From: a virus
Direction: 5' to 3' (one strand)
DNA length: 41,161 nucleotides
Virus genome (UHGV): UHGV-0045963
Shown: positions 412 through 38,738 of the stretch, piece by piece
Layout of the letters: the number at the start of each line of letters is the position of its first letter
How positions within the stretch are numbered: position 1 is the first letter of the stretch
Notes under the pieces: model-generated
Told to the model about the DNA's origin: nothing
Databases searched by the model: none
Seen by the model: only the letters and a program-made list of their open reading frames with translations
Position numbers and translations under genes: made by a program

Positions 412-721
412 CGGTTACCTTCTCCACTCTCACAGAACATAACGGCACCTCGCTGTCGGATGCTTTTGCTCTTTGAGATTATCAAAGCGGCAGATATTCT
501 TTCATCTTAAATTTTACGTCTTTGTTCTGACTGAAGTTCATCCTGTTCGGCTGCGAAATAAATACATCATTAATACATATGTTGTGATGATGTATTTTTA
601 TAAATTATTTCCCGCATGAATTTTAATAAATTTAATCTATTCCTTTATACGCAATACATTTACTTTCCTCTTTTGATGATCTTAAATGTCTCATTTTTCG
701 TAATGTGTATAACAAGGAATA

Positions 722-1866: not shown

Positions 1867-2014
1867 CATTCATAGTGCAGGGATCAAAATCATTCCCACT
1901 CAATTATTCACGGACACCATAACCAATTGAGTGATAACATTTTTCCAAAGATGAATTTTTCCCATACCGTTTTATATACCGTCACCGGAAATCAGTACCA
2001 TGAAAAATGCCATG

Positions 2015-3812: not shown

Positions 3813-4118
3813 ACTTTCTCCTGTTTACTATCTATAAGCCAGTCAATTATTGATGACTAAACCCGCATAGTAAACCATATATGAATCATTATTGTTCCAT
3901 ATCATATATCTCAATAAAAGTACTAATTATTTTACAGAACGAGCCAGCAGAGTGGGGGCAGTTGTACAGGAACCATAGACTTAATTTTGTATTTAATAAT
4001 GCTATGGTGTAATAAACCTGAACATGTATTTAAAATACGTACTGATTCATGATAGAATTCAAAGATAACTTTTCACCAACTCCGTTTTTGATACCCGCAA
4101 AATATTGCGGGCTTTTTT

Positions 4119-7100
4119 TTAACGTTCTTCCAGAGACTGAATCCGCTCTTTTATCTTATCCATTTCTCTGCGCTGCCATGCTGCCTCGATATAGAATAAG
4201 AGATCAGGTCTGACCCCCCATCTAGATCCTGCTGGCGTTATTTCAACGCGCTCAATGATGTCTTCCATTACCATCACTGGATTATCATCCTCATCAACAA
4301 TGATGCTCCCGTCATTATCAGTCAGCTGTATTTCCCTTTGGCCAGTAATGACGTCATCATATACTGCGGGATAATCGTCATAGCAAAGAAAGGCATAGCG
4401 GCATGTTGTGCTTTCTTCTTCCATGAGTCCGTGAGAAATAAGAACATCACGAAGTTGCTGCGCGATTACACCATGATGTATCCTCGCCCCTTCTTCTCCC
4501 TTTATAGCGACAGCGTTCAGCCATTTATAAGCGATATACCTGACGTCACCCCAGGCATCCAGCAATGCTTCGTCAGGAGAGACCGGCTCTGTCTTTAATG
4601 TTCCGTCACTGGTAACCACAGGATTGGAGCCAAGATAAACTGTCGAGAACCTGTTTCCCGGACCACCAAGAGCATTTACATTATCAAGATAAGGTTTAAC
4701 ATCTCCGTTCTCAAAAAGATGTTCGAGTGCGTTATATACCGCGCGACGTGGAGTACTGCTTCCGGAACCATGCAACGTTATCATTGCACCATCTGCTGAA
4801 GACGTTGTTTCACCGCCGCTAACGATTAATCTCTGAGCGGTAACATCATCAGACGGTACTTTCTTCGCAATAATGGCGTAATTGCCCTCCAGTTTGACTT
4901 CCGCGCGAACTTGTCCTGATGTACCTGCATGGACAGTCAGTGACTGGACGGCAACATCATCTGTGAAATCAACGGGTACAGGAACCGTCCTCACGCCGGA
5001 CGTCGACATAAAAGTAGGAAGCGTTCTGTTAGGAGTGGCTCCGTAGACAAAATCCCTTGAAACAAATTCTTCCTGTTTAATTTTCACCCTGAAACAATAC
5101 AAATCAGCCGGGTGACCATCGTGAACATAAGGATATTTTCTGTTGTTATCCCCTATGCTCCATGGGTTTAGAAAGTCTTCCCCACCGAAAATGTAGTACA
5201 GCCAGTTGTCTTTGATACAAACTGAACCAACACCAACCGCAGAGTTAACTATTCCGCCCTGATAAATCTGATCAGTAACATTAACCCACTCTACATTATC
5301 CAGACTCCACTCATTGACGTTAACTCTGGTCATAAATGTTCTTGGATAATTTCCTGCATAACGGTTATCAGGTTCTCCTCCTTCCCACTCACCAAATGCG
5401 CGCTCACTGCCAAAAATAATCAGCTCATCGCCAACTTTGGCAAAAGGAAGGTTTGAGTGATGAACATTATTTGGGAAGCGAAGAGAATTCCATGATGCAC
5501 CTAAATCAGAGCTTCTGTGCAATGAACTACCGGGTTGAGTACTTAATGTCCCCCTGGTCGTCAGATACAGAATGCCATCATAATATTTTACACATGGCTC
5601 AGATGCATTCGCCTCATATTCTGCAGGTATGCGTCTGCGAACAAAGCTACCAGGAGAACCGAAAGCATCAGAGAAATAGAGTATCCCAAGCTCGCGTGGA
5701 CCAATATCACCATTATGGTAGCCAACAGCAAAACTGTTATCGCTAATCGTCGCAAAACTGTGAATCTCAGTAACAGGAGTGCTTCCGTCAACAAAAGAAG
5801 AAATAGTTCCAAGACTGGTTTTTCTCCATGGTGACGAGTGAAATGATGTACCAAAACTCCAGTATCTACCCTCGTTATTCTGATCCACATCCTGAGTATT
5901 TTGCGTCGTAACTGTAAAAGTATTTTTATCAATAACAGTAGTCACCGTCATATTCCCGGTAACACCTGTAACACCAGAGTTTGAGAAGTTGACAAAATCA
6001 CCAGCAAATAATCCGTGATCAGTAATGCGAATATAAGCGACTTGCTGATTTGCTGCTTTCGTTATACCACCATAAACGCGAAGGCTGCGACTCATTGGAC
6101 GATCCCACAACTCTGCAACCTGCAGTTTATTTCCGCGCACGGTCCGCGTCTCAATTACAGCAAAAAGGCGATTTCTGACAACCCCCATACTCATGCAGTG
6201 ATAGTTAACTGTGGGATAGTTTTCATGTAAATCTGTAAGCCATTCCGGCGTTGTCCAGGTCTTCCCGTCATCTCCTGAGCGAACCCATGCAACATGGAGG
6301 TTATTTACACCATGGCGGTCTCCAGCCATAAAAGGCGCATAGATGACATTGTCATATACAAACGTTTTATCCTGCGTCCAGGCGTTGTACCACGGTGTAT
6401 CTGTAATTTTAAATAACTCTCCCTGGATAAAATCTTCAGAAGCATAAAAAAGAGGCTGACCCGGTATTCTCTCAAATAAAAAACGAGCATTTTTAAATCG
6501 GCTGACATCCGGAAGAGTTGATACTTTAAAAGTAAGCCCTAATCCGTCAATTTTATAACCTGGAGATGAGGCTTCAAGGCACGCGCTTATTGCAGTGGAA
6601 TCGTCATTTATACCATCACCAACAGCTCCAAAATCTTTGGGGCTAATAGCATCACGCATTTTATCCTGGAACGTTCGGTATACTGCCCCAGAACCATACT
6701 GAATAAACCAACCAAAACCACCAACAACCCCGGCGATTGCAGCATCGACATAATTACGCATTGAGCGATTATTTACAGCGTCCTGTTCAAGTGATGGATC
6801 TGCAAGGTTAGAAATTCTGTTTTGCTTTGCATCGTAATATTTTGCAAGCAAAGATGGTTTCATCAATGCACGTCTGAACCATCCAAAACATTGCTGGATC
6901 AGCATCGTCAGGTAGTCAAAGGCATCTTCATGCACTTCGGGGAAAAACTTTCCCTGATTGCGAAGGTCTGTCTCCTGCACTACATCAAGCACACGATCTA
7001 TCGTAATTCTCCATCCAGTAGCAAGCGGCGACGGAAGAACCACAGAACCGCCACTATAAGTGCCCGCCCCAGTTACCGTATAACCGGTATCCAGAACCAA

Positions 7101-7238
7101 TTCTGTTACGTTCCCGTTCAGGTCAGACACCTGAACAACCAGGTCGGATTTTCTGAAAATTCGAAAAGTATACGGAAACGATGTCGTAACGCCGTTACCG
7201 GTGTATTCGTTGTGGTCAACTTCGGTTGAGACCGTCAT
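4119..7238 (-). CDS. tailspike with sialidase-like (endo-N-acetylneuraminidase-like) central domain and C-terminal intramolecular chaperone (peptidase S74-like) domain
   Basis: 1039 aa; two Asp-box motifs (SGDDGKTW, SSDLGASW); C-terminal TSDGTLK ... GVIAQQL pattern of self-cleaving chaperone domains; phage fibre-type N-terminus (TGNGVTTSFPYTF). Confidence 0.85.
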   Translation of the reverse strand: MTVSTEVDHNEYTGNGVTTSFPYTFRIFRKSDLVVQVSDLNGNVTELVLDTGYTVTGAGTYSGGSVVLPSPLATGWRITIDRVLDVVQETDLRNQGKFFPEVHEDAFDYLTMLIQQCFGWFRRALMKPSLLAKYYDAKQNRISNLADPSLEQDAVNNRSMRNYVDAAIAGVVGGFGWFIQYGSGAVYRTFQDKMRDAISPKDFGAVGDGINDDSTAISACLEASSPGYKIDGLGLTFKVSTLPDVSRFKNARFLFERIPGQPLFYASEDFIQGELFKITDTPWYNAWTQDKTFVYDNVIYAPFMAGDRHGVNNLHVAWVRSGDDGKTWTTPEWLTDLHENYPTVNYHCMSMGVVRNRLFAVIETRTVRGNKLQVAELWDRPMSRSLRVYGGITKAANQQVAYIRITDHGLFAGDFVNFSNSGVTGVTGNMTVTTVIDKNTFTVTTQNTQDVDQNNEGRYWSFGTSFHSSPWRKTSLGTISSFVDGSTPVTEIHSFATISDNSFAVGYHNGDIGPRELGILYFSDAFGSPGSFVRRRIPAEYEANASEPCVKYYDGILYLTTRGTLSTQPGSSLHRSSDLGASWNSLRFPNNVHHSNLPFAKVGDELIIFGSERAFGEWEGGEPDNRYAGNYPRTFMTRVNVNEWSLDNVEWVNVTDQIYQGGIVNSAVGVGSVCIKDNWLYYIFGGEDFLNPWSIGDNNRKYPYVHDGHPADLYCFRVKIKQEEFVSRDFVYGATPNRTLPTFMSTSGVRTVPVPVDFTDDVAVQSLTVHAGTSGQVRAEVKLEGNYAIIAKKVPSDDVTAQRLIVSGGETTSSADGAMITLHGSGSSTPRRAVYNALEHLFENGDVKPYLDNVNALGGPGNRFSTVYLGSNPVVTSDGTLKTEPVSPDEALLDAWGDVRYIAYKWLNAVAIKGEEGARIHHGVIAQQLRDVLISHGLMEEESTTCRYAFLCYDDYPAVYDDVITGQREIQLTDNDGSIIVDEDDNPVMVMEDIIERVEITPAGSRWGVRPDLLFYIEAAWQRREMDKIKERIQSLEER

Positions 7239-7341
7239 GTTAAATCTCCAGATAGTCGCAGCACCCGTTGCGCCGCATATCTGGTCATTCTATTACCTAA
7301 AAAACCACATATGGATAGAAAGACTGTGAATACGAATAGAT

Positions 7342-7692: not shown

Positions 7693-7698
7693 ATTTAA

Positions 7699-7716
7699 AG
7701 GCCGCAAGAGCGGCCT
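7699..7716. terminator. hairpin shared by the convergent genes 7420..7692 and 7715..8443
   Basis: AGGCCGC AAGA GCGGCCT stem-loop; overlaps the stop codon of the minus-strand gene. Confidence 0.45.
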
Positions 7717-8443
7717 ATCGTTTCGCTTTGTGCTCATCCCAGCACGTTTTGCACCATGCCATTAAGCCGTCCGCATTTTGATTATTAGGGTAAAAGCTGG
7801 TTCGTTTTCTGCGGACATTACAAATTGGGCACCACTTCATATGGCGTGTATTCTTTGGGCCATCGAGACACCTTGCACACCACTTAGTCAATCCATCTGG
7901 ATTTTTTGACGATTTCCTGAATTTTTCATATGGAAGGTTTATTCTGCATCGCAAGCACTGCTTGCTACCACTTGAAACTCTGTTAGCTGATTCTTCTTTT
8001 GGCGGCGATACAGAAGGTATTCTTGCTGGCTCTGATACTGCCTGAGGTGCTTTTTTAGATGACTGAGACGATATGTCATCACCAGGGAATCTTCCATGAT
8101 ATGCCGGACGCGTTGACACTCCAGGTGGAAGCTCAGCTGTAAACGGCTTTGGCTGAATCAGTTGCCTCTCTTTTGCTAACTCCTGCTGTTTATAATATGT
8201 CTGGATTACCGCACTATCATAAGCAGGAGGTGCGGAAATATTAGGCGCATTACCTCCAGTTTTTTGAAACTGAGTAGAGGTGTGTTCTATCACCTGTGTA
8301 CGATTAATCGTTATCTCCCCATCTTCGGTCTTTATCGTTTTGTTATGATTAACGACCGTACGATCAGAGATCTTAGTCTTGTTCTGGTTGATAACGTAAA
8401 TAATCACCGCAACCACACCAACAACTATCCAGAAAACTTCCAT
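7715..8443 (-). CDS. membrane-anchored protein with C-terminal tandem Cys4 zinc-ribbon-like repeats, unknown function
   Basis: N-terminal TM (VFWIVVGVVAVIIYVI), Ser/Pro/Gln-rich linker, two repeats C-x2-C ... WC-x-x-C (CLRCR...WCARC; CPICN...WCKTC); RBS GAGGAAAAGCA. Confidence 0.6.
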   Translation of the reverse strand: MEVFWIVVGVVAVIIYVINQNKTKISDRTVVNHNKTIKTEDGEITINRTQVIEHTSTQFQKTGGNAPNISAPPAYDSAVIQTYYKQQELAKERQLIQPKPFTAELPPGVSTRPAYHGRFPGDDISSQSSKKAPQAVSEPARIPSVSPPKEESANRVSSGSKQCLRCRINLPYEKFRKSSKNPDGLTKWCARCLDGPKNTRHMKWCPICNVRRKRTSFYPNNQNADGLMAWCKTCWDEHKAKR

Positions 8444-8462
8444 TGCTTTTCCTCACAATAAC

Positions 8463-13535: not shown

Positions 13536-15338
13536 TTAACCTCTCAAGAAACACGCCACAGCGACATCAAACAGGCTGGAATCCTGTATTGCCTGCTCAC
13601 TTTCCCTGTTCGCTTCATCCAGTGCTTCACGCGCACTGCGCGATTGTGGATTACCATCATCATCCAGCACGGTGATTATCATGTCAGGTGATTCAAGCAG
13701 CGAGTCTTCAGCTATGCGCAAATCAATATCTCCTGCCTGATCTGACATCATTTTTTGTTCTGCCTGTTGCAATATTTTATCAGGCTCAAAAGGAGCTACT
13801 TCGTCTGGCGTCCTGACCTCTGCTGTTTTATAGAATGAAACAGCCTGAGCATTAAGTTCACTTTCTGCCTGCTGTCTCCGAGCCAGTTCTGCTCGAGCTT
13901 CAAAAAACTGACCGCCAGGCTCATGCGGTGCCAACGCGTTACGAGAAAATTCCAGGCGTTCTTGTGCCTGCCGGATTCGTTGGTCAATATCGCGAAGTCT
14001 GGCCTGTTTATCTGATCGAGCACGAGATAAAGCCTTACCGCTACCGGCTGGATCTTCTGCAAGAATTTGTGCGCGCTGTTCAGTGAGATTTTCAATAATT
14101 CGTTGGCTATTAGCGATTTCAGACTGGTAAACCTGTCTATCGCCACGCGGCAAAAGCTGCGCGGCCTGTTCTTCAAGCAACCGATTTTCTATAGCGCGCG
14201 CCGTTACTCCATCATCTACAGATGACAGAGCCTCATTAACTGCCTGAGACAGCAGACTCTTGCGTCCAGGAATTTCACTGAAAGATGCAGACTCAACAAT
14301 GCTGGCAACGTCTACAGGTCTCCCCTGGCTAACATCAGACATGGCTTTTCGCAGAGCCTGAATGTGCGAATTACGCGAAAGCACGTTGATCGGCACGCCG
14401 GGAGCAATATCAATTTCAGCATGATGAGCGGCATTCGCCGCCAGTGCAGCATCGATATCAACTGGTGAAAAATTTGGTGCGCTTGTAGACTCGCCGCGAG
14501 AGTTAATAAATCTGCCGACACCACCAAACGCCACCCCAAGAACAGCATCAATAGCAATTGCCTGTCGATCCAACACATCATACTGGTTAGCCATTTCGCT
14601 ATAGCCACCATCACGAAGCGTTTTTGCAGTAAGCCCACGCTGTGCCATACCGAACGCAATATTTGTACCTGCGGCATAGGCAATATCTGGCGTTGCACGT
14701 ACTGCTGTTGCTGCGGCGCGTCGCACTGAACTTTCACCCGTCCGCGCAAGCTGAGCCGCCACACCTTCCGCCAGCGCACCACCAGCACGTAACCCGAGGC
14801 TCATAGGGATCAGTGTTCCGGCACCAGCAGTAATACCCTGCACTAATCCCGCTTCCTGCGCCGTCCTGAAATCAACACCCTGTGCTGTAAGCCGTTCAAA
14901 CTCAGAAAAACCCTGTAGAGAAGTTACCGCCGCAGCACCTCCGACCGGACCACCGAGCGTTGTACCGACAACAGCCTGCCCGCCCATATCGAACAACCCA
15001 TAAAGGACCTGCCCGGCGGTTCCGGTTGTCGCGGCATCAGGCGTCAGCCGCTTAACCTGCTGCTCTGCTAGTTTTCTCTGCTCAGCAATGTATGAAACTG
15101 AAGTGTCATTGATCGAGGTGTTTTCGTTAACAAACTGAGCAATCGGGGATACGATTTTATCCATCCCTGCCCATAGCAACTGATCTGGCTTTGCCACCAG
15201 CCCGGAGTACAAACCAGACAATGCCGCTCCTACAGCATTGTCGAAAAAACCAACATCGCTGTTAAAGCCAGCTGGATTTGATGCTGCTTCGTCAAGCTGC
15301 TGATTCTGGTTTACTGGATTAAGGCCAAAGTAACTCAT
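13536..15338 (-). CDS. virion internal/ejection protein
   Basis: 600 aa, Gly/Ala-rich N-terminal half; start overlaps the upstream stop (ATGA). Confidence 0.65.
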   Translation of the reverse strand: MSYFGLNPVNQNQQLDEAASNPAGFNSDVGFFDNAVGAALSGLYSGLVAKPDQLLWAGMDKIVSPIAQFVNENTSINDTSVSYIAEQRKLAEQQVKRLTPDAATTGTAGQVLYGLFDMGGQAVVGTTLGGPVGGAAAVTSLQGFSEFERLTAQGVDFRTAQEAGLVQGITAGAGTLIPMSLGLRAGGALAEGVAAQLARTGESSVRRAAATAVRATPDIAYAAGTNIAFGMAQRGLTAKTLRDGGYSEMANQYDVLDRQAIAIDAVLGVAFGGVGRFINSRGESTSAPNFSPVDIDAALAANAAHHAEIDIAPGVPINVLSRNSHIQALRKAMSDVSQGRPVDVASIVESASFSEIPGRKSLLSQAVNEALSSVDDGVTARAIENRLLEEQAAQLLPRGDRQVYQSEIANSQRIIENLTEQRAQILAEDPAGSGKALSRARSDKQARLRDIDQRIRQAQERLEFSRNALAPHEPGGQFFEARAELARRQQAESELNAQAVSFYKTAEVRTPDEVAPFEPDKILQQAEQKMMSDQAGDIDLRIAEDSLLESPDMIITVLDDDGNPQSRSAREALDEANRESEQAIQDSSLFDVAVACFLRG

Positions 15339-17848
15339 TGCGGAATATCTCCGGAGAATCTCTGACGCTTCTGTGTCAGATTAAGAACAACGGGAGAACC
15401 ATCATCTTTCAGCAGATAACCAGTACCAAGTTTAACCAGGTACTGACTATCGCCGTAACTTTGCAAACCATACTGACCAGGCGGTGTTTTTATCCCGGAG
15501 CCGACAACTTGTTCATTCCAAGCCTGATTAACCTGCTTATCGAATTGCTCTGCAGACATTCCCCACGGCAAAAGGACATTCCCCATTCCGTTATAGTCAT
15601 GCACGCCACCTGTAGCTACGTTAACAGCCTGTTTCCAGACATCATTGTCAATTTCGCCTGATACCACGCCTTTTTTCGCCATCACACCAGCGTAATAATC
15701 CTTTGCGATCTCGTATGCCATTGATGCGCCCTGAGCGTCACCAGCAAATGCATCCTTCACCATGTCAGAAAACTCAAGGCGAAGATCAGCATCTTTAGGC
15801 ATCGGAATACCTTTCGCATCATCAGTACCTTTACGAGCCGCCGCGCCAGCAAGAATTGTCTGCGCAGCGGTTTCAGGAGACACGGAAACATCCGGATTAA
15901 ACCAGTTTTTTTCTGCCAAAATACCACCAGGCTTATCCATCAGTATCCCGGCAACGGCAGCAGATGGAGCGTTGGCACTGATCTGCTGTAGTGCTGACAT
16001 ATACACCTGCCCACCACCAGTGCTCTGCCTGATGGTATCGAGATATGCTGCCTGTTGGGAAACTGGAGCATCACGAAAGAAAACACCGATCTGATTGGCC
16101 TCGTCTTTGGAAAAGAACGTCAGTGGAGTGCCATATGACTTAGCAAGGTCACTGACCTGAGCGGCACGCAAGGCAACGCTCTGTCCAAAGTTATCCTTAT
16201 TGCTCATGTCGATAGGCTTTGCCTGTCCGGAGGCAAGAGAGAACTGCACAGGATCCGACTGCCGCTGCTTTATCACCTGATTTGCAGCCGAAACAACGTT
16301 GTCATAAAGAGCTGCGCGTGCCGCATACCCCTCCCCTGTTTCACCAGTATCCGGGCGTAATTGCTCAACATATGCTGTAATGCTGCTTGTCGGCATGTTG
16401 CGGAAAGAGCCGATATACTGTCCGGCGATCTGCGTATTCTTAAACTCGGTATATCGCAGGTTTCCTTCTCTGACTCCATAAGCTGCAATAAAATCATCCT
16501 CACCAGGTGGGTTAGGAAATTCAACGCCACGCATATACGCAGCCGTCGCATCGCGAACCCGGCTGTCGAGCATCGTTTTATATTCAGCCTGCTGTTGTCT
16601 GGCTAGTGCATCAGTCTGTCGCAACACGCTGGCCTGATCTGATTCACTTAAAGCATCGAACCAGGCTACACCGGTATAACGTTTATTTTTTGTCGGTAGC
16701 TGAGAAAGCCCCAGCGCAGCACTAACACCTGCAGTTAACTGCTGATCACTGTATGGCTGGCTACCGTTTTCATGATGGATAATGGCTGCACAAAGCGCCT
16801 TCAGGGTATCAGGATTTGATGCATCGAGAGGCTCATCAGCAGAAACGCCAAGTTGTTCGCACACTGCTTTGATATACGACATAGTGTCATTTTTATCAGT
16901 AGGCGGTGCCCAGCGATTAATTATCTCGCTGACGGTATCAATACCCTGCCGCTGATACGACATCAGGTTCCGCCCTAATGCACGAATACCGTGTTCAGGG
17001 GTTTCGAATTTGGCAAAGCGACCATCATCACCAGTCTGCCCAACCCACGGATTAGTTTTGCTGTATTCAAGATTGCCGGGGTTATTGTTGCGTATACCGC
17101 GGGTACGATCGGAAGAGCCACTATCTGCTACAGCACGGCGAGATCCAGCAGCAGTATCGCTTAACTCGCCGTTTTGCTGTCTTACCTGAAGATAGTTTGC
17201 TCCAATAGCATTTTGAGCAGTTGCTTTTGCTGTTGCTTCTTTAAACTCGATTTTCTTGGCCTGGATTTGCTCGTCACTCCAGCCATGTGCAATGCCGTAA
17301 TCCTCAATTTGCTGGAAAGTTTGCTTATTAGCCAATACGTATGCGACGTTGTCGCCATACAATGCTGCGGCATTTTTACCATTGTTCAGCAGCGTAGCCT
17401 GAAACTGGCCTTCTTCGTAGGCATTTATTTGCCCTATCTCGTGCCGCCCTGCCTGCGTAGTGAACTGAATGCGCTGCTGCTGCGCCTGCTGCATGAAAGC
17501 ATTACGAGCCTGTTCATCCGGCAGCGACATAGCCAGTTGTTCGACCTGAGCATCAAACTGCTGCGTATACTCCTGACCTTTTCCAATAGCATTTTTCCCT
17601 TTCAGGTTAAGCAATCCTGTTTCAGGATTATTCAGCAGATCACTGCTTATCTGACTGAGGTTAAGAGATGCCTCCTGAGCCAGAGCGATATTGGCACGCT
17701 GTTTTGCCTGACCAAAAACATCAATTGCCTCTGTCCCTGCCCGAACAAAAGCATCACCAATACCTGGCTGAGAAAACGTCTGCAAGCCTGCTGACTGAAC
17801 TCCACGGCTCTGAACCTGACGGCCGGATACTGTTGGTACGACTGGCAT
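15335..17848 (-). CDS. virion internal/ejection protein
   Basis: Start set at the internal ATG with RBS GGAGG, which overlaps the upstream stop by 1 nt (TAATG); the longer track ORF (to 17923) would overlap the upstream gene by 76 nt. Confidence 0.65.
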   Translation of the reverse strand: MPVVPTVSGRQVQSRGVQSAGLQTFSQPGIGDAFVRAGTEAIDVFGQAKQRANIALAQEASLNLSQISSDLLNNPETGLLNLKGKNAIGKGQEYTQQFDAQVEQLAMSLPDEQARNAFMQQAQQQRIQFTTQAGRHEIGQINAYEEGQFQATLLNNGKNAAALYGDNVAYVLANKQTFQQIEDYGIAHGWSDEQIQAKKIEFKEATAKATAQNAIGANYLQVRQQNGELSDTAAGSRRAVADSGSSDRTRGIRNNNPGNLEYSKTNPWVGQTGDDGRFAKFETPEHGIRALGRNLMSYQRQGIDTVSEIINRWAPPTDKNDTMSYIKAVCEQLGVSADEPLDASNPDTLKALCAAIIHHENGSQPYSDQQLTAGVSAALGLSQLPTKNKRYTGVAWFDALSESDQASVLRQTDALARQQQAEYKTMLDSRVRDATAAYMRGVEFPNPPGEDDFIAAYGVREGNLRYTEFKNTQIAGQYIGSFRNMPTSSITAYVEQLRPDTGETGEGYAARAALYDNVVSAANQVIKQRQSDPVQFSLASGQAKPIDMSNKDNFGQSVALRAAQVSDLAKSYGTPLTFFSKDEANQIGVFFRDAPVSQQAAYLDTIRQSTGGGQVYMSALQQISANAPSAAVAGILMDKPGGILAEKNWFNPDVSVSPETAAQTILAGAAARKGTDDAKGIPMPKDADLRLEFSDMVKDAFAGDAQGASMAYEIAKDYYAGVMAKKGVVSGEIDNDVWKQAVNVATGGVHDYNGMGNVLLPWGMSAEQFDKQVNQAWNEQVVGSGIKTPPGQYGLQSYGDSQYLVKLGTGYLLKDDGSPVVLNLTQKRQRFSGDIPQ

Positions 17849-18393
17849 TATAATCCTCCGGGTAATCTGGTTCCTGCTGCTGCCCCGATTGGCGCAGGGG
17901 TGCTTTGAGTAAACGGACTCCACGTCCCACCAAACATCTGGTACGCACCGTATGCCTTCAGAGGCGCAGTGAGCAATGTTGTTGCTGCTCCCACATTCCC
18001 CTGTTTACGGGCTGAACTGGCTTCTGCTTTATAGTTGGCAGCCTGAACCTGATAACCGTAAGCCTCGCGTTGCGCGTTATTCACCGTCGTCAGCGAATCA
18101 AGAGCGCCAAACTGAGCAGTGTCACCAAATATATCCAGCGCGTTACCTGTAGATAAATCGGCGCCGGTCGCCCCCATTGTCGCCGCCTGTGTACCAAGCC
18201 GCTGTCGGGTCTCTCTGCGCCGTTGCTCAGCTTCAGCGTTACCCCTGTTTATTGCATCATTTGCCTGAGCTGTGGCTATATCTGCGTTCGCTTCTGCAAC
18301 CTTCGAGGCATACCTTACCTGTTGGTACTGGGTGTATGCCTGAATGCCACTCATGGCGAGCATTGCGCCACCAGCAATAACCGGATCGCACAT
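17848..18393 (-). CDS. small virion internal protein (T7 gp14-like position)
   Basis: 181 aa, Ala/Gln-rich; 1-nt stop/start overlaps with both neighbours. Confidence 0.55.
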   Translation of the reverse strand: MCDPVIAGGAMLAMSGIQAYTQYQQVRYASKVAEANADIATAQANDAINRGNAEAEQRRRETRQRLGTQAATMGATGADLSTGNALDIFGDTAQFGALDSLTTVNNAQREAYGYQVQAANYKAEASSARKQGNVGAATTLLTAPLKAYGAYQMFGGTWSPFTQSTPAPIGAAAGTRLPGGL

Positions 18394-18857
18394 TATTTTC
18401 TCTCCATGTGAAATCTGTGGAAATTAAGACCAAGAGCACCATAAGGCGCGGCTTCTTCAAGCCTGAATCCAAGCCAGTGCAGCCATGCTTTGGCAACATG
18501 GTTTCGCTCGTCGACGTAGTTTTCCAGGCGCGGATAAACTGCCAGCATCTGCTGCAATACAGGGCGGCAGTGGCGAAGAAATGTCTTCTGATATTTTTCA
18601 ATACGGCTGGTTCCGACCAGCCAGGGCGTACCATTGCCACCGATCATTGACGCCGGAGATACGCCAAACATGGTTACCAGTTCTCCGTTCGCAAATCCTG
18701 ACCAAGCCATAGTCGCAGTACGCAGACCAACACGCAGCGCATCTTCGGTAGTCATCAGTGATACCGCATACAGTTCGTCAATATCAGCCTGACGAACATC
18801 CGGCAAAATCATCTGAAGATGCTCTTCGGTTGCGGGAATAATTTGAACATCGATCAT
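18393..18857 (-). CDS. virion-associated protein (T7 gp13-like position)
   Basis: 154 aa; translationally coupled between the tail tube B-like gene and the internal protein genes. Confidence 0.5.
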   Translation of the reverse strand: MIDVQIIPATEEHLQMILPDVRQADIDELYAVSLMTTEDALRVGLRTATMAWSGFANGELVTMFGVSPASMIGGNGTPWLVGTSRIEKYQKTFLRHCRPVLQQMLAVYPRLENYVDERNHVAKAWLHWLGFRLEEAAPYGALGLNFHRFHMERK

Positions 18858-21328
18858 CAGAATCCCCCAACAGTAAGACGAGGAATAACGGCAAGAACAG
18901 ACAGCGGCAACGGATCAAGCTGACGGATTTTTACACGTCCGTTTTTGCCCCAGTTACTGTCTAGTTTCACTTCTACTTTTCCGGTAGCATCATCAACAGG
19001 ATCATCGTAGAACTCGAATTCACGCTGTGGATATTCGTACCATTTACCGCCGGGCGTAGTCGCCCAGATGCCGCGACTGGCATTCACAACCAGAGTAACG
19101 GAGGGGATCACCTGTTTTTTGTCCAGCAGCGTTTCCTGTCCGTTAATGTTGATATCCAGTGTTTCGAATTCAGCAGTTATTGGCAGGCCGATGTGCACTA
19201 CAGCCCCCGGAGATTCCAGCGTGACGGCACCTCCGGAAACCACTTTCTGTGGTTCCACGTTCGCATCAGAGAGAATGTTTACGGTCTGGCCTTCAAGATG
19301 AGACAGGCCTCCAAATGTCCGGCGCGCCATCTGCCAGTTCGTGGTGGCCACATTCCTGAGGGATGGCGGGACGTTCCTGTTAGCACGAACCACTACAGCG
19401 GTATTGCTGGTTACAGAAATAATGTCGCAACGTAATTCTTTTGACACTTCATCGCCAGTATCAGGATCAGTTCCGGTATAAGGGAACTGTAGTTGCGCAC
19501 CGACATCACTACTGGTGAAGTACGCACCACCAGAAACACTGATTGTATATTCCGCGCGGTAATCCCATTCGCCAGAACCACCAGTGATTGTCATCGTTCT
19601 GTCAGACGTATTTCTTCCATCATAGCTAAGGCCAGAATCAACAAAGAAAGCGTCTTCATCGCTGGTAAATAAACGGCTGGACAGCCGCTCGATGTATCTC
19701 ACTGTTTGCCCGTTAACGGTTCGGTTAACGACGAAATACACCGCATCTTCATTGCCTTCGCTGATACTGCATGTGCTTTCATATTTTCCGGTACTGGATT
19801 GTGGTGCCCATGCAAAAACCTGCTGATCACGCAAATAGGTCATCACCAGTAATTTACCGTCATCACGAATGCAGAAGGCGCTGGAGTAAGGGACAATAGA
19901 GAAGCACCAGTCAACAATGCTGTGCTTCTGAAAAAGATGATTGGCAAGGATAGTAAGGTCGTTCCCCTGATAGCCGTCAACATCGAATGAATAGGCCAGA
20001 TCACGGACAACACTGCCTTTCTCCTGGACGAACAGAGCAATATTCGCCACGGCAATTGGTGGGACGTTGCTTGAGCCATTTGATCCCTGAGAGCTGAATG
20101 CAAATGATGATGGGGTTAACACTTTGTTCTGGTCGCCGGTGATGACGTACTCACCTCCGGAAGTCAGCGCCACCAGCGAACCAACATCAATCAGGTGGCG
20201 GATCTCATTAACCTGACGCCCGGCATAGGTGTAGATAATTCTGTCGTCATCCTGCGTAGGATTGCTTTTGCCAAAATCCTTATAATCCCCGGTACGGCTG
20301 GCCCAGATAGTCTGAGGGAACGCAGTCGATGCGGCGAAGTAAAGACGTTGTTGATAATAAACAACAGTGCCAGGATAACCATTAACACTGTTCCAGGCAT
20401 ATTTAGCCCATTTATAGCTGGCATTATCCTCGCCAACGACCTGCGAAGGAATATAGGAAATCACCTCGGCAGTTGCAGTAGTTCCATTTGCAGCAGTGAT
20501 ACGGGCAATGCCAAAACCACTGTGCAGATATTCCCACTCAATGCCAGTATCATCATCACCGGATCCACCCCAGCCATCCCATGATGTGCCTTCTGTATGC
20601 GAAGGGCGCAAAGTACCTGTTTTGCCTGCTGTAACGGCGCGATAGTAGTTACTGTCTGCACGGCGAATATCGCCAATCGACGTACTCTTACTGGTTTCCC
20701 ATACCGGCACTGAATCCACTGCAGGCTGTTCCAGATAGAACAATTTGCCTACCTGCTCCGCGCCAAAAATAGAGGCGCTTGCCGTTAACGTAATTGTCCC
20801 GGTGCTGGCGCTGGCATAAACCGTCACTGACTCGTCAATATTGATATCTTCAAATGGCCCGTTCTTCGTTACCACATCAACCAGTTGCCAGTTGTCATGA
20901 GCATAGCGACGCAACTCTTTCGGCGGGTATGCCGGATGAACAAGCGTAAGCACGTCGGCGCTTTGCGTGAATTTAATTCGGAACAGATCGGCTTCAGTAT
21001 ATGGCGTGGCAATTTCATAAATAACATTGCTGCTGTTCAGCACCAACGCACCATCTTTGATAACGCGCATGTACTGGTGTCCGAACTCCAGAGCATAGGT
21101 CTGAACCGTCGAGAACTGGAACGGGATCAGGCGGCATTTCCGATTTGGGTATTTGGCGGCACCGACAAAACGCGTACCTGGTCGATTCTCAACGCCGCCA
21201 TACTGCCGCACGATAAAGTTATCGCACTTGCGCAATGCCACCTGGTACTTCGCCATGTCAATACGCCCGTACAACGACGGTCCAATCTCACCACCGGCAA
21301 AGCTGGGCTGGATCCAACTGATAGCCAT
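18857..21328 (-). CDS. tail tubular protein B-like (nozzle)
   Basis: 823 aa, immediately downstream of and coupled to the tube A-like gene; size and position as in T7-like tails. Confidence 0.55.
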   Translation of the reverse strand: MAISWIQPSFAGGEIGPSLYGRIDMAKYQVALRKCDNFIVRQYGGVENRPGTRFVGAAKYPNRKCRLIPFQFSTVQTYALEFGHQYMRVIKDGALVLNSSNVIYEIATPYTEADLFRIKFTQSADVLTLVHPAYPPKELRRYAHDNWQLVDVVTKNGPFEDINIDESVTVYASASTGTITLTASASIFGAEQVGKLFYLEQPAVDSVPVWETSKSTSIGDIRRADSNYYRAVTAGKTGTLRPSHTEGTSWDGWGGSGDDDTGIEWEYLHSGFGIARITAANGTTATAEVISYIPSQVVGEDNASYKWAKYAWNSVNGYPGTVVYYQQRLYFAASTAFPQTIWASRTGDYKDFGKSNPTQDDDRIIYTYAGRQVNEIRHLIDVGSLVALTSGGEYVITGDQNKVLTPSSFAFSSQGSNGSSNVPPIAVANIALFVQEKGSVVRDLAYSFDVDGYQGNDLTILANHLFQKHSIVDWCFSIVPYSSAFCIRDDGKLLVMTYLRDQQVFAWAPQSSTGKYESTCSISEGNEDAVYFVVNRTVNGQTVRYIERLSSRLFTSDEDAFFVDSGLSYDGRNTSDRTMTITGGSGEWDYRAEYTISVSGGAYFTSSDVGAQLQFPYTGTDPDTGDEVSKELRCDIISVTSNTAVVVRANRNVPPSLRNVATTNWQMARRTFGGLSHLEGQTVNILSDANVEPQKVVSGGAVTLESPGAVVHIGLPITAEFETLDININGQETLLDKKQVIPSVTLVVNASRGIWATTPGGKWYEYPQREFEFYDDPVDDATGKVEVKLDSNWGKNGRVKIRQLDPLPLSVLAVIPRLTVGGF

Positions 21329-21933
21329 CAGGACAACCTCGCAATGGTAAACTCGTCAACCGGTGGCTGTGGTTCCTGTGATTCATTCTGGCTATGCGAG
21401 CCAGCACTAAGAATCACGCGATTGTACATATTGAGAGCAAATGTACCGAGATCCGCATTCCCAGTCAGCGCCATGTTAATGGCTGCCGCAAGACGCCAGG
21501 CCAGCGCCTCCATAAAAATGGCATCAAACATGTTTACATCTGAAACGCGAGAGACATACTTGAGCCATGCCTGCGGCTGGTCTGTGTAGATCAATTTTCC
21601 TGTTCCGTTGGTGTCTGCACCAACTTCGTACTGAACGCGCATTGCTGCTGTTGGATTGCGTACACCAGGAAGCATAATTTCAGTAATGCGCAGACAATCG
21701 GACGGGTACTGATACGCATATTCCCAGTCAGGCGGTGGATTGCTCGTATCTGCAAGCGCCACGCGTTTGGTAGCAAAGTTCCAGTCAAAATCAGAAAGCA
21801 CAGCATCACGGCAGGCCTCAAAGTGCAGCGAACATTCCCCCGCTTCCTTGCTGGCTTCCGTCAGGCTGTTAATGCTGCGGCTGTTGCCAATATTGGACAG
21901 CGCACGATTACAGATCTCTACTACAGAGGCCAT
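21328..21933 (-). CDS. tail tubular protein A-like (gatekeeper)
   Basis: About 200 aa; N-terminal EICNRALSNIGNS...INSLTEAS pattern resembling tube A proteins; RBS GGAGGTG. Confidence 0.55.
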   Translation of the reverse strand: MASVVEICNRALSNIGNSRSINSLTEASKEAGECSLHFEACRDAVLSDFDWNFATKRVALADTSNPPPDWEYAYQYPSDCLRITEIMLPGVRNPTAAMRVQYEVGADTNGTGKLIYTDQPQAWLKYVSRVSDVNMFDAIFMEALAWRLAAAINMALTGNADLGTFALNMYNRVILSAGSHSQNESQEPQPPVDEFTIARLS

Positions 21934-22256
21934 CACTCACCTCCGTTACCGTACAGAGTTTCAGCCGCTGATTTTTCTACATCCCCGGAAACAGGAGCGA
22001 TTGCCATATCAGTGATCTGCAGATCGGCGCTGCGATTAACACCATCGTCAGTTTCTCTGGCAGACAGGCCTCGAATAACAGCCTTTGCAGTTATCATCAC
22101 TTCTGTTCCGACGCCCTGAGGTTGCGCCTTCAGCTTATTCAATGTGTCGTTATTAAGAGTGATGCACAGCCCCCACGGGTATTCATCGCGAGTTCTGGTT
22201 TCTCCGCTCTCATCCTGGTAGCTGTCAGTGCCGGTTTTGAGGTTTACGAGTTCCAT
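21933..22256 (-). CDS. small head-tail joining or structural protein
   Basis: 107 aa from ATG with RBS AGGAG; the track start is GTG. Confidence 0.45.
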   Translation of the reverse strand: MELVNLKTGTDSYQDESGETRTRDEYPWGLCITLNNDTLNKLKAQPQGVGTEVMITAKAVIRGLSARETDDGVNRSADLQITDMAIAPVSGDVEKSAAETLYGNGGE

Positions 22257-27461: not shown

Positions 27462-27538
27462 GTGGCATTAGCTCAGTTGGACAGAGCAACCGCCTTCTAA
27501 GCGGTTGGTCGCAGGTTCGAATCCTGCATGCCACGCCA
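27462..27538 (+). tRNA. tRNA-Arg (anticodon UCU, decodes AGA)
   Basis: Hand-folded cloverleaf: 7-bp acceptor stem GTGGCAT/ATGCCAC, D-stem GCTC/GAGC, anticodon stem ACCGC/GCGGT with loop CTTCTAA, T-arm GCAGG-TTCGAAT-CCTGC, discriminator G and encoded CCA. Confidence 0.9.
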
Positions 27539-30913: not shown

Positions 30914-31187
30914 CAATATTCACCTTTATAGCGAACACCTTTACCGGTTTATCGCCGAAGTGCGGATGTGTGATTGTCTTGATTTCATATCCGTCATACG
31001 GGACGTCAATTCTGCGGCTGGAATCGTCGCGCTTCGGATATCCCTTTGTGATAATCAGGCGGTCATACTCGCGGAACATAATTCGCTTATTCCAGTAGTC
31101 ATTACACAGGCGATACTCTTCCGTTTTCTCTCCGCGAATCATGGCATCGAAGTATTCACCTTTAACGGCAAGTTGCAGGTTAGCCAC
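30906..31187 (-). CDS. hypothetical protein, possibly PUA/ASCH-like
   Basis: 93 aa; GTG start with strong RBS AAGGAGG; the family assignment is from memory only. Confidence 0.45.
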   Translation of the reverse strand: MANLQLAVKGEYFDAMIRGEKTEEYRLCNDYWNKRIMFREYDRLIITKGYPKRDDSSRRIDVPYDGYEIKTITHPHFGDKPVKVFAIKVNIDG

Positions 31188-31464
31188 GACCTTCCTCCTT
31201 TGGCTTGTGAATTTGTATCGTCATGCCGCTTTGAGTGGTGACTACAACGACAGAACCAGGCTGAAGACTGTTAAGATTGAATGCTTCGTAAAACGAAGCC
31301 AAGGCCAGCGCTTTTTTATTCTTTCGGTTCCACCAACGCCATCCATTGCTACAGGCTACACTGACAATCCACTGTCCACTCCTGTAAGCCATATAAAACC
31401 AGATGAGCAAAACCTGAATGAATGCTATCCAGTCAATAATCGTATATTTCGCGAAGGAGACCAT
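31180..31464 (-). CDS. small membrane protein
   Basis: N-terminal TM (IIDWIAFIQVLLIWFYMAY); ATG overlaps the upstream stop by 1 nt. Confidence 0.45.
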   Translation of the reverse strand: MVSFAKYTIIDWIAFIQVLLIWFYMAYRSGQWIVSVACSNGWRWWNRKNKKALALASFYEAFNLNSLQPGSVVVVTTQSGMTIQIHKPKEEGRG

Positions 31465-32213
31465 CAATTAACCTCCTGCGGCGGTTCCGGTAGAGGCATC
31501 CAGTACAAGGCGTTCCCTAACCACGATAAAGTGCCGTCGCTCAACTCCACGTATTCCCCTTGTACCTGTCCTGCCATATACTCGCCGTGCTTTGAATAAA
31601 TTAAAATCCAATCATCTTGAGCGGGCATTCGCTCACTACAGCTTATCCAACCATCCGGAGTTACCGGATAGTTGCCAGCCTGAACAGTAGGCATATCAGG
31701 ACCTTTGCGAATCGCCCTGGCAAGATCGATTGGGTCGTCGTACAACCAGTCACCTGTTTGCGGATGATTGGCTTCTGCCAATTGTGCAGCCCACTCCAGG
31801 CCGTCTTTGTGTCCTTGCAGATAGTCCAGCGGTAACTCATCACTATTACTTACAGGTTCGGCCTGAAGCATGGCGGCGCGGCAGGCGTTCCAGCCTCTCA
31901 CCTCTGCAATAGCGGCAACAGCATCGACCGCGTACATTTTAAGAGGGTTAGGCATTGGTTTTTCTTCAGGTACTACTGGCACTGGAGGGGCGGCATAAAC
32001 AGGAATAACGTCCGATTGCTCTTTATTGCTTTCATCCGTCAAAGCCCAGAATAATTTCCCGGCCGGATGTTTGAAAATATAAGCAACTGGATCTGCTTCC
32101 AGCGATGCCAGTGCAATTTCATAAGCCCGGCGTTCAATATTGTCTCGAACGTCCAGGCTGCTGATACGCTCTTTGATTTCTTTAATCAGTTCTTTGTCGG
32201 TAAAAGTAGTCAT
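31464..32213 (-). CDS. DUF551-like domain protein (nin-region type)
   Basis: C-terminal GWISCSERMPAQDDWILIY...WMPLPEPP resembles the DUF551 module common in lambdoid prophages; RBS GAGGA. Confidence 0.55.
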   Translation of the reverse strand: MTTFTDKELIKEIKERISSLDVRDNIERRAYEIALASLEADPVAYIFKHPAGKLFWALTDESNKEQSDVIPVYAAPPVPVVPEEKPMPNPLKMYAVDAVAAIAEVRGWNACRAAMLQAEPVSNSDELPLDYLQGHKDGLEWAAQLAEANHPQTGDWLYDDPIDLARAIRKGPDMPTVQAGNYPVTPDGWISCSERMPAQDDWILIYSKHGEYMAGQVQGEYVELSDGTLSWLGNALYWMPLPEPPQEVN

Positions 32214-32216
32214 GTG

Positions 32217-32504
32217 TTAGTCCTCATCCACTTCAACGCCATCTTTCAGCGTGATGCCGTGCCAATCATCAGCCCAACTGGTTAGCCCTGGCGCATCAAT
32301 GCTAGGCATATAAACGCTTGCAGTGTGGTAGCCCTTATCGTTATCAATGCTGGCAACGTGCTCGCCGTTGTATGCGCTCAGCGTGTCCAGGACGCTATAA
32401 AACTTTCCTCCGGCTGCCCTGAAATCCTTTACAGCCTTCACAAGGCGATTCCACGCTTTTTCCTGTTCTGGCGTCAGGTCGATTAATTCCTGCAAAGTTG
32501 CCAT
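32217..32504 (-). CDS. hypothetical protein
   Basis: 95 aa from the ATG with strong RBS AAGGAG; the track start is TTG. Confidence 0.45.
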   Translation of the reverse strand: MATLQELIDLTPEQEKAWNRLVKAVKDFRAAGGKFYSVLDTLSAYNGEHVASIDNDKGYHTASVYMPSIDAPGLTSWADDWHGITLKDGVEVDED

Positions 32505-34986: not shown

Positions 34987-35794
34987 CCCACACCTCATCT
35001 ATCCAGTCAGTGTTATGCCAGTCAAGGCTCTTTCTGACTTCACCTGATTTCTGTCTACAGAACTGGATGCGCCTTGCCAGCTTCTGCTCCCACTGTGCCT
35101 GATGGTATGCCTTACCCTCAGCCATCCAGTAAATTCTGAACTCTGCAAGTTCCTGTGCCGTTGGCAGACTGTCCAGGTAGATTCCCTGCAATGAGCTTTT
35201 CCGAAGAAAGTCATCTGATGGCTGCCATTGTTCATGCATGACAAATTTGCCTAATTGCCCTGGCCCACCAGGAGGAACAAAGTTATTCATCACGGCGTTG
35301 TTTGCGCCGGGGTCATGAGGCACAGAATCCCCGGTTTTTGTCCTGCTCTCCCTCTCTTGGTTAAATGACTGGTTATATGACTGGTTCTGGATCCCGTTTT
35401 TGGGATCATTCAACATCCCGTTTTTGGGATCATTCAACATCCCGTTTTTGGGTATATTCCCGTTTTCGGTAACATTACCGTTTTCGGGTTCATTGCCCCC
35501 CTCCCGGTTGCCTTTAATGTTCCCGTTTTTGGTTATATTAAGAGAGAAAACCCGCACTCTTTTTGTCGCTCCCTTTCTCTCTCCGGTATCTGAAATAAGC
35601 CCCATTTTCATGAGCGATATAAGCCCGGCCTGCACGGTTTTTTTATTCAGGCAAGTGTCTTTAACGAGGCGTTCTATGCTGGGGTAGCAGAGGTTATATT
35701 CATCGGCTCTGTCAGCCATCGAGAGCAGTATGAGCTTTAATGATGAGCTACCTGGATCTGTCTCCCAGGCCCAATCTGTTGCATGTCTGCTCAT
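34961..35794 (-). CDS. replication initiator (lambda O-like role) with iterons inside the gene
   Basis: N-terminal winged-helix-like DNA-binding region; Asn/Gly/Pro-rich repetitive linker encoded by the iterons; followed by the P-like gene. Confidence 0.75.
   Translation of the reverse strand: MSRHATDWAWETDPGSSSLKLILLSMADRADEYNLCYPSIERLVKDTCLNKKTVQAGLISLMKMGLISDTGERKGATKRVRVFSLNITKNGNIKGNREGGNEPENGNVTENGNIPKNGMLNDPKNGMLNDPKNGIQNQSYNQSFNQERESRTKTGDSVPHDPGANNAVMNNFVPPGGPGQLGKFVMHEQWQPSDDFLRKSSLQGIYLDSLPTAQELAEFRIYWMAEGKAYHQAQWEQKLARRIQFCRQKSGEVRKSLDWHNTDWIDEVWDEINSRTS
35391..35539. repeat. origin-type iterons (at least six copies of the core CCCGTTTT(T/C)GG)
   Basis: Three 24-bp-phased copies of ATCCCGTTTTTGGGATCATTCAAC-like units, then shorter 18-19-bp-phased copies, followed by a lower-GC stretch; all inside the initiator gene as in ori-lambda. 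Confidence 0.7.
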
Positions 35795-35809
35795 GATTAA
35801 TCTCCGCTA

Positions 35810-36010: not shown

Positions 36011-36089
36011 GGTAAGCCCTGTTATTAGTATTGGGATTACGGTCATTTTGTGCTGACACAAAAAAAAGATCAACCAGATTTGGTTTTTT

Positions 36090-38729: not shown

Positions 38730-38738
38730 GGAGAAAAA

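Follow-up and report, generated by a model that had tools for sequence, protein, structure and literature searches.

Predicted K1 endosialidase tailspike of an ε15-like prophage: a Uetakevirus anchoring module joined to CUS-3 catalytic and chaperone modules

A tailspike gene in the window (the whole stretch of viral DNA analysed, 41,161 nucleotides of UHGV virus genome UHGV-0045963) very probably (probability about 0.93) specifies a receptor-destroying protein that cleaves the K1 capsule and releases its own chaperone, in an integrated temperate podovirus of the ε15-like group that infects E. coli K1. The gene is a mosaic: its anchoring module is of the Uetakevirus type, and the catalytic and chaperone modules joined to it are those of CUS-3, a P22-like prophage. 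The gene itself is already known, because it is published in phage vB_EcoP_ZX5 and dozens of E. coli K1 genomes have it annotated. The mechanism is likewise nothing new, because the enzyme family, the self-cleaving chaperone and the exact gene in ZX5 are all published. The present analysis adds the mosaic map, the co-residence of the prophages and the finding that neuO was left untransferred. The domain content, the conservation of residues, the near-identity to characterised relatives, the breakpoints and the prophage context were computed in this work. The features are listed in Table 1.

Table 1. Coordinates of the tailspike gene, its domains and motifs, and neighbouring features in the window
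Feature	Position	Strand	Basis or remark
GGAG ribosome-binding site	7246..7249	-	Sequence read; 7 nt upstream of tailspike ATG
Tailspike gene	4119..7238	-	ORF list; ATG start; 1039 aa; 115.7 kDa precursor
Uetakevirus-type tail-anchoring module, residues 1-199 (β-sandwich and coiled-coil neck)	6642..7238	-	Homology to phiv142-3 and Carin-1
Junction segment, residues 200-232	6543..6641	-	Starts endosialidase N-terminal extension; contains GDG..DD motif
End_N_terminal domain, residues 205-271	6426..6626	-	PF12218, E=5.9e-32; endoNF crystal constructs start at the aligned position
Block in common with CUS-3 siaK1, gene nt 699-3091	4148..6540	-	22 differences in 2393 nt, 99.1% nt identity
Six-bladed β-propeller (catalytic), residues 272-721	5076..6425	-	PF12217 End_beta_propel, E=3.6e-232
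Asp-box 1 SGDDGKTW, residues 321-328	6255..6278	-	Motif search and endoNF alignment
β-Barrel inserted in propeller, residues 383-465	5844..6092	-	PF12195 End_beta_barrel, E=3.2e-46
Asp-box 2 SSDLGASW, residues 576-583	5490..5513	-	Motif search; A581, versus T in CUS-3 and ZX5
Stalk (triple β-helix region), residues 722-876	4611..5075	-	PF12219 End_tail_spike, E=8.5e-78; includes R863
Self-cleavage centre S877-D-G-T-L-K882	4593..4610	-	Aligns with endoNF S911...K916; scissile bond T876/S877
Intramolecular chaperone/Peptidase_S74 domain, residues 877-1039, 18.7 kDa	4122..4610	-	Predicted to be released
G+C-rich hairpin just beyond tailspike stop	4094..4111		Sequence read
Prophage att core ATTGAGTGGGAATGATT	1888..1904	-	Core sequence from PMC9782041; host yfgH, yfgI to the left

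The protein matches PHROG 1171 'tail spike protein' over its full length. When Pfam was scanned with the curated cut-offs, four endosialidase domains of GH58 are each matched end to end, with scores (110-770 bits) far above these cut-offs. The endoNF structures 1v0e, 3gvl and 3ju4 are matched by phmmer over residues 205-876 with E=0 and an identity of about 65%. The resemblance to phage endosialidases, as judged from the sequence, is far beyond chance. The generic Asp-box pattern S.D.G..[WFY] has exactly two sites in the tailspike, and both align with the boxes SGDDGQTW and SRDIGQTW of K1F endoNF. The catalytic residues H350, R549, E581, R596 and R647 of endoNF (listed in PMC12632334) are all conserved, as H309, R515, E547, R562 and R613 respectively. 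Alignment indicates that Q330, K585 and N699 of endoNF are likewise conserved. The position of Q853 of endoNF, which we take to be a stalk-site residue, is occupied by M, as in CUS-3. The position of K410 of endoNF is occupied by G, which is common to CUS-3. K410 is dispensable in the phage according to the mutational scan of K1F, and the β-barrel of endoNF is a polysialic-acid binding site (PMC12632334). EndoNF (gp17 of K1F) has the same fold and belongs to the same mechanism class, with an identity of about 65% in the catalytic part and 54% in the chaperone. The window protein has two insertions relative to endoNF, one of 7 residues near residues 481-487 and one of 8 residues in the chaperone domain. 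It also has the Uetakevirus module, whereas endoNF, the protein of a lytic Autographiviridae phage, has a T7-type N-terminal adaptor.

The Peptidase_S74 profile (PF13884) matches residues 877-937, directly after the stalk, with E=1.7e-10 and 41.4 bits (cut-off 22), and the structure of the endoNF stalk and chaperone, 3gw6, is matched by phmmer over residues 757-1038 with E=2.9e-94. The motifs TSDGTLK, LLDAWGDVRYIAYKW and IHHGVIAQQL are located at residues 876-882, 892-906 and 920-929 respectively. The dyad S877/K882 has the same 5-residue spacing as S911/K916 of endoNF, R863 of the stalk corresponds to the conserved R897, and T876 corresponds to the conserved T910. The position of N912 of endoNF is D878, as in CUS-3. 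The roles of the dyad, of the stalk arginine and of the other residues in the cleavage mechanism are taken from PMC3828593 and PMC8326128, in which a hydrogen bond that joins T910 to N912 of endoNF is proposed to strain the scissile bond. The eukaryotic MRF homologues, which cleave nonetheless, likewise do not conserve the N912 position. The masses predicted for the two cleavage products are 97.0 and 18.7 kDa. The earlier note had read a sialidase-like domain and a self-cleaving chaperone from two Asp-boxes and the C-terminal S74 motifs. All five motifs that it quoted are present where it placed them, the GH58 and Peptidase_S74 profiles that it proposed as a check all score above the curated cut-offs, and the conserved Ser/Lys dyad is present.

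The N-terminal module is identical to the tail fibre of phiv142-3 at 197 of 199 positions (99%), and the DNA homology to phiv142-3 spans gene nt -453..596. This module is also homologous to D1-D2 of the Carin-1 tailspike Dpo31, of which D1 attaches to the tail, with a match to Dpo31 residues 1-215 (PDB 28lx/8ck1; E=1.8e-35), and is 67.7% identical to the tailspike of Salmonella phage SPN1S. A head-binding N-terminus of the P22 gp9 type is not found; in a forced alignment, residues 1-199 share only 25% identity with the N-terminus of CUS-3. The DNA homology to CUS-3 begins only at gene nt 699. Residues 233-1025 correspond to the CUS-3 endosialidase SiaK1 (ABQ88383.1; P22-like, Lederbergvirus) with 98.7% amino acid identity, only 10 positions being different, and the two proteins share the propeller, β-barrel, stalk and chaperone. 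The GenBank record of CUS-3 cites direct-assay evidence for endo-alpha-sialidase activity. Gene nt 597-698 fall between the homology blocks of phiv142-3 and CUS-3, and residues 200-232 are 45% identical to CUS-3 and 48% identical to phiv142-3. When a donor of this 102-nt junction was searched for in the phage collection by sensitive blastn, only the same gene, in the ZX5 and Phi05 records, contained it. The last 14 residues of the tailspike are also unlike CUS-3. Both junctions include a short stretch for which no close parent is seen.

The Uetakeviruses phiv142-3, phiV10, ε15 and SPN1S have the same N-terminal anchoring module and the same virion backbone. Their receptor-binding parts target O-antigens (O157 in the case of phiV10), and an O-acetyltransferase is encoded in their genomes. 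In the window tailspike, the endosialidase stands in place of this O-antigen-targeting part. CUS-3 has the phase-variable neuO gene beside its tailspike gene, whereas the heptanucleotide repeats of neuO are not found in the window. The gap between the tailspike and holin genes contains neither an overlapping ORF longer than 54 aa nor a conversion gene. Thus, neuO of CUS-3 was not transferred with the tailspike. The hairpin beyond the tailspike stop has a T-run on the + strand, and on the strand of the tailspike gene an A-run precedes it.

Collinear with ZX5, phiV10 and phiv142-3, the window represents an integrated prophage, in which homology to phage records starts at the att core. ZX5, a temperate ε15-like Uetakevirus, has the same att core at guaA and lysogenises its host (PMC9782041), such that the temperate nature claimed in the earlier note is borne out. 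A CUS-3-type copy is integrated at the tRNA-Arg gene next to yfdC, whereas the window prophage is integrated at guaA. Throughout the structural and lysis region, the window and ZX5 are collinear, with about 97.8% identity. ZX5 covers 78% of the window, leaving 22% uncovered; accessory genes are extra or different as compared to ZX5, for example at 7715..8443, and the window ends ahead of the integrase gene. The portal is a member of PF12236, a family of the T7 type, and the T7_gp14 cut-off is exceeded by one core protein. The nozzle, the adaptor and three large internal proteins match no Pfam family and are matched only by PDB 8ck1 (Carin-1) and 9efk, with 8ck1, the Carin-1 virion structure, as the only match of the nozzle and adaptor. 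Because the Pfam scan yielded no family for these tail proteins, a direct homology of the 'tube' proteins to T7 is not demonstrable by profile. Phage_T7_tail (PF03906) scores only 18.2 bits on the tailspike N-terminus (cut-off 25.2; best alignment at residues 135-161), no stretch passes alone, and the full-length scan gives no hit at E<=0.1. Thus, the tail is 'T7-like', as it had been described, only in a loose sense. This description holds for the portal and the T7_gp14-type protein, but not for the nozzle and adaptor, the tailspike N-terminus or the membership in the Uetakeviruses.

The tailspike is most closely represented by ORF7 of ZX5, to which it is 99.2% identical at the nucleotide level and 99.4% identical over 1039 residues at the amino acid level, with the same flanking genes. 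The six differences between ZX5 and the window tailspike are R141K, L150F, S480P, A581T, I970M and Q971P. The 2022 paper on ZX5 names the same three parts, a tail-fibre N-terminus, an endosialidase and an intramolecular chaperone. The earlier reading of an endosialidase and a chaperone on such a tail is therefore correct but not a new observation, because that paper already states the combination. The full-length gene is present in 72 of 5,426 complete genomes, in which there are also roughly 150 genes of the CUS-3 type; strains carrying the window prophage include APEC E19035 and FDAARGOS_1303. Loci of RefSeq WP_000218910.1 are 100% identical to it, as are copies in several independent E. coli K1 chromosomes. 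Identical copies are found in one chromosome with the label O2:K1:H5, and in E. coli isolated from humans and poultry. CUS-3-type and Uetakevirus-type copies share the same K1 chromosomes. Ongoing gene conversion between them is rejected, because the two copies within FDAARGOS_1303 differ at 23 of 2393 nt, as against 22 for copies taken from different genomes, and are thus no closer to each other.

By analogy with endoNF, we infer as follows how the protein would trimerise, cleave itself and dock, and which substrate it would cut. Three 115.7-kDa chains would trimerise, driven by the chaperone domain, which would template the folding of the stalk. After the stalk has folded, K882 would deprotonate S877, and S877 would attack the T876-S877 bond with the assistance of R863. 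The 18.7-kDa chaperone would then depart, leaving a stable 97.0-kDa mature subunit, and residues 1-199 would dock the trimer to the tail at the adaptor and nozzle. The β-propeller would cleave α2,8-linked polysialic acid, aided by binding sites in the β-barrel and stalk, such that the virion could reach the outer membrane by tunnelling across the K1 capsule. This endosialidase activity would restrict the phage to K1 strains. The K1 polysialic-acid specificity, which the earlier note had raised as a possibility, is supported by the near-identity to CUS-3, by the growth of ZX5 on a K1 host and by the identical copy in the O2:K1:H5 chromosome.

Other readings of the gene are much less probable. 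That the protein is a depolymerase of another class, such as a β-helix of the pectate-lyase fold, or an exo-sialidase of the GH33 type with superficial Asp-boxes, has a negligible probability. Pect-lyase_RHGA_epim does match 21 residues (201-221) with 14.9 bits, and the generic BNR sialidase profile BNR_2 reaches 17.7 bits, but both scores are below the cut-offs (27 and 31.4 respectively), as opposed to 110-770 bits for the GH58 domains and about 65% identity to solved endosialidases. Both classes are refuted by these Pfam scores and the structure matches, and the pectate-lyase fold, which had been named as the alternative, did not win. A dead gene, left over in a defective prophage and providing its host with no functional tailspike, is also very improbable. 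Tailspikes of prophages do decay, as exemplified by the co-resident CUS-3-type copy in FDAARGOS_1303, which is interrupted by a stop at codon 225, and the end of the window ahead of the integrase gene and the 22% of the window outside ZX5 would fit such a decay. In contrast, the frame of 1039 codons is intact and preceded by its GGAG site, the gene is 100% identical in several independent chromosomes and only six residues away from that of the functional ZX5, and the whole structural and lysis region keeps its collinearity with ZX5.

It is quite improbable that the protein, though of the endosialidase fold, prefers a substrate other than plain K1, such as O-acetylated polysialic acid or the K92 polymer (α2,8/α2,9); the 10 substitutions as compared to CUS-3 and the different N-terminal junction would be the source of such a shift. 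Among these substitutions are A581T, located in Asp-box 2, and the stalk changes G826R and T866I, and substitutions in the stalk and β-barrel of K1F alter the discrimination among K1 strains (PMC12632334). In addition, an acyltransferase gene (neuO in the CUS-3 record) adjoins the tailspike gene in the co-resident CUS-3-type prophages. However, the catalytic residues are all unchanged, and the carriers for which record titles state the serotype are K1. ZX5, which forms plaques on a strain typed as O87:H52:K1 (PMC9782041), shares only four of the 10 differences from CUS-3 (L233, A266, R368 and A891) and is identical to CUS-3 at the other six positions. A K1 endosialidase tailspike remains the preferred reading. 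We tentatively consider, as a rather unlikely extension of it, that a single recombination between a Uetakevirus and a CUS-3-type prophage in one K1 chromosome produced the chimera, with neuO left behind, and that the chimera occupies the site at which its relatives have a serotype-conversion gene. The ε15-like lineage would then be devoid of a receptor-modifying immunity, and its substitutions might allow attack on the O-acetylated capsule of CUS-3 lysogens. If true, this attack would explain the frequent co-occurrence of both prophages.

Endosialidase tailspikes serve as polysialic-acid reagents and as leads for anti-capsule therapy, and much of the virulence of neonatal-meningitis, urinary and avian pathogenic E. 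coli depends on the K1 capsule as a major factor. Prophages with a K1 endosialidase are common among E. coli, the catalytic module being present in about 3% of the complete genomes. The tailspike gene represents a clean, datable case of the exchange of a receptor-binding module between unrelated lineages of temperate podoviruses, P22-like and ε15-like, which share the same host chromosomes.

The gene at the centre of this analysis encodes a K1 endosialidase tailspike, which has been published previously and is annotated widely (RefSeq label: 'endosialidase catalytic beta-propeller domain-containing protein'). The closely related tail protein gene of Escherichia phage vB_EcoP_ZX5 (ZX5) shares 99.2% of its DNA and 99.4% of its protein sequence. 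ZX5 is a 39.6-kb temperate Uetakevirus that was isolated on an O87:H52:K1 strain and has its integration site at the 3' end of guaA (PMC9782041). In the description of the ZX5 ORF, an N-terminus like that of T7-like tail fibres precedes an endosialidase part and a C-terminal endosialidase intramolecular chaperone (PMC9782041). At least 80% of the gene is carried by 72 of 5,426 complete genomes. The observation of the earlier note, a sialidase-like tailspike with a self-cleaving chaperone, is borne out, and the evidence supports the way in which it was interpreted. What the analysis shows directly is which domains the protein contains, that the key residues are conserved, that characterised proteins are nearly identical to it, where the mosaic breaks and in what prophage context the gene lies. 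The only additions made here, which are modest, are the exact breakpoints of the chimera between Uetakevirus and CUS-3 (a P22-like prophage with the endosialidase gene siaK1) and the co-residence of both prophage types in K1 chromosomes.

Features of the tailspike gene and its surroundings (residues and gene nt are those of the tailspike)
Feature	Position	Strand	Remarks
Tailspike ORF	7238 to 4119	minus	uninterrupted, ATG start, 1039 aa
GGAG site	7 nt 5' of tailspike ATG		sequence read
SGDDGKTW	residues 321-328
SSDLGASW	residues 576-583
TSDGTLK	residues 876-882
LLDAWGDVRYIAYKW	residues 892-906
IHHGVIAQQL	residues 920-929
End_N_terminal	residues 205-271		profile search, E=5.9e-32
End_beta_propel	residues 272-721		profile search, 3.6e-232
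End_beta_barrel	residues 383-465		inserted; profile search, 3.2e-46
End_tail_spike	residues 722-876		profile search, 8.5e-78
Peptidase_S74	residues 877-937		profile search, 1.7e-10; 41.4 bits, cut-off 22
Mosaic segment	gene nt -453 to 596 (residues 1-199)		Uetakevirus backbone; phiv142-3: 96.9% nt, 197/199 aa
Mosaic segment	gene nt 597-698 (residues 200-232)		no close parent in phage collection outside same gene
Mosaic segment	gene nt 699-3091 (residues 233-1025)		CUS-3 siaK1; 99.1% nt, 22 differences in 2393 nt
Mosaic segment	gene nt 3092-3401 (residues 1026-1039, hairpin, spacer)		no close parent
Mosaic segment	gene nt 3402 onward (holin genes)		Uetakevirus backbone again
Host DNA (yfgH, yfgI)	window 1-1887
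att core ATTGAGTGGGAATGATT	1888..1904
Two endosialidase copies, NZ_CP070045.1	L007 5001..7946; L008 1501..4620

All motifs quoted in the earlier note are present in the tailspike. Both Asp-boxes, the only two found by a generic Asp-box pattern in the whole protein, line up with the two boxes of endoNF (gp17 of the lytic phage K1F). The profile search matches the endosialidase domains and Peptidase_S74 unambiguously. The endoNF structures 1v0e, 3gvl and 3ju4 align end to end with residues 205-876 (E=0), the stalk-plus-chaperone structure 3gw6 aligns with residues 757-1038 (2.9e-94), and a PHROG 1171 match spans the entire tailspike. It is unlikely that the tailspike represents a different enzyme class; the profiles of the two named alternatives both stay sub-threshold, pectate-lyase with 14.9 bits over 21 residues (cut-off 27) and generic BNR with 17.7 bits (cut-off 31.4). 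It is also unlikely that this gene is a dead prophage gene; its ORF is uninterrupted, and several complete E. coli chromosomes, among them that of an O2:K1:H5 avian pathogenic strain, carry it with 100% identity.

Functional residues of endoNF were taken from papers and mapped by MAFFT alignment with K1F gp17. The catalytic and binding residues H350, R549, E581, R596 and R647, plus Q330, K585 and N699 (K1F deep mutational scan, PMC12632334), correspond to H309, R515, E547, R562 and R613, plus Q289, K551 and N665, and all are conserved. The cleavage centre consists of S911/K916 with R897 and T910/N912 (PMC8326128, PMC3828593), and R897, T910, S911 and K916 are conserved as R863, T876, S877 and K882. 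The Ser-Lys dyad, the absence of which the earlier note named as refuting its reading, is therefore present. Two paper-derived positions differ, K410 (G369), which was dispensable in the phage context in the same mutational scan (PMC12632334), and N912 (D878). The predicted cleavage at T876/S877 would split the precursor of 115.7 kDa, leaving a mature chain of 97.0 kDa and releasing a chaperone fragment of 18.7 kDa (computed masses). Q853 of endoNF, presumably a stalk binding-site residue, aligns with M819. CUS-3 has the same residues as the tailspike at the K410, N912 and Q853 positions. A shifted substrate preference is unlikely.

The prophage extends from 1888 to the end of the window and is collinear with ZX5, which covers 78% of the window, with ~97.8% identity in the lysis, tailspike and structural region. 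The same att core is reported for ZX5, phiV10 and ε15 (PMC9782041). Because host DNA adjoins this core and the prophage is collinear with ZX5, the designation 'temperate' is right. By the order of genes in ZX5, the integrase gene would lie just past the window end. The early-region segments 30914..32501, 35031..36067 and 37834..39757 have no megablast coverage by ZX5, and the prophage therefore departs from the published phage in its replication, recombination and accessory genes; this is ordinary temperate-phage mosaicism. A gene between the tailspike and anti-repressor genes (7715..8443, minus strand) encodes a protein of 242 aa that has a hydrophobic segment at its N-terminus and Cys-rich repeats at its C-terminus. 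This protein fully matches PHROG 6762 (unknown function) and weakly matches endonuclease VII-like and Lar-like proteins. The gene is absent from ZX5 (7693-8556 uncovered) but present in the prophage of E. coli APEC E19035. A tRNA-Arg gene (anticodon TCT, 27462..27538, plus strand) between the terminase and portal regions is annotated in the APEC E19035 copy too.

The tail is T7-like only in a loose sense. The portal is a member of PF12236 and one of the internal proteins exceeds the T7_gp14 threshold, but the nozzle (18857..21328) and adaptor (21328..21936) match no family in the Pfam scan, and the tailspike N-terminus scores 18.2 bits against the Phage_T7_tail threshold of 25.2. The sole PDB matches of nozzle and adaptor are 8ck1 and 9efk, the former with the nozzle (E=4.9e-218) and connector (E=2.9e-26) of the marine podovirus Carin-1. 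The tailspike N-terminus matches residues 1-215 of the Carin-1 tailspike Dpo31 (E=1.8e-35), in which D1 is a β-sandwich attaching to the tail and D2 a coiled coil (PMC13317679). A large internal virion protein (15335..17923, minus strand) matches endolysin and 'tail injection transglycosylase' PHROGs and no Pfam family, which suggests that it may be a T7 gp16-like cell-wall-degrading ejection protein.

The left mosaic junction coincides with the start of the crystallised endoNF fragment and is where the enzyme naturally parts from the particle-binding module. A GDG..DD..A motif at this junction is common to different tailspikes in the alignment. A G+C-rich hairpin (4094..4111) immediately follows the stop codon; its 8-T run is on the plus strand and its A-run on the gene's strand, so that its orientation, judged by consensus, is that of a terminator for transcripts arriving from the opposite direction. 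Surface-modifying genes lie nearby in relatives: the homologous region of phiV10 includes an O-acetyltransferase gene, phiv142-3 has Orf5 in the same tailspike-holin gap, and CUS-3 has neuO just downstream of its tailspike gene (record). In the window, no ORF of more than 54 aa overlaps this gap (3813..4118), no AAGACTC repeat array is present, and neuO was not transferred along with the endosialidase module. At this position, the prophage seems to have no gene for modifying the capsule or O-antigen.

Among the 5,426 complete genomes, 194 have the catalytic module (181 at >=80% coverage), and a CUS-3-specific junction probe detects 154 at >=80% coverage. These 154 and the 72 with the Uetakevirus-type gene add up to more than 194, so that both types must occur together in a minimum of about 30 genomes. 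Some K1 chromosomes, demonstrably that of E. coli FDAARGOS_1303, contain a CUS-3-type (P22-like) and a Uetakevirus-type endosialidase prophage. In FDAARGOS_1303, the Uetakevirus-type gene is at 2.828 Mb; the CUS-3-type gene, at 2.659 Mb, adjoins acyltransferase, integrase and tRNA-Arg genes and is a pseudogene, its codon 225 being a stop. Between the two copies there are 23 differences in 2393 positions, largely those that also distinguish the module from the CUS-3 reference. Continuing gene conversion is rejected on this result, which points to one older exchange and separate descent thereafter.

By analogy with endoNF and CUS-3, the chaperone would drive trimerisation of the tailspike, Ser-Lys self-cleavage would follow folding of the stalk, and residues 1-199 would serve as the docking part. 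The tailspike would then endo-cleave α2,8-polysialic acid, such that the virion may cross the K1 capsule.
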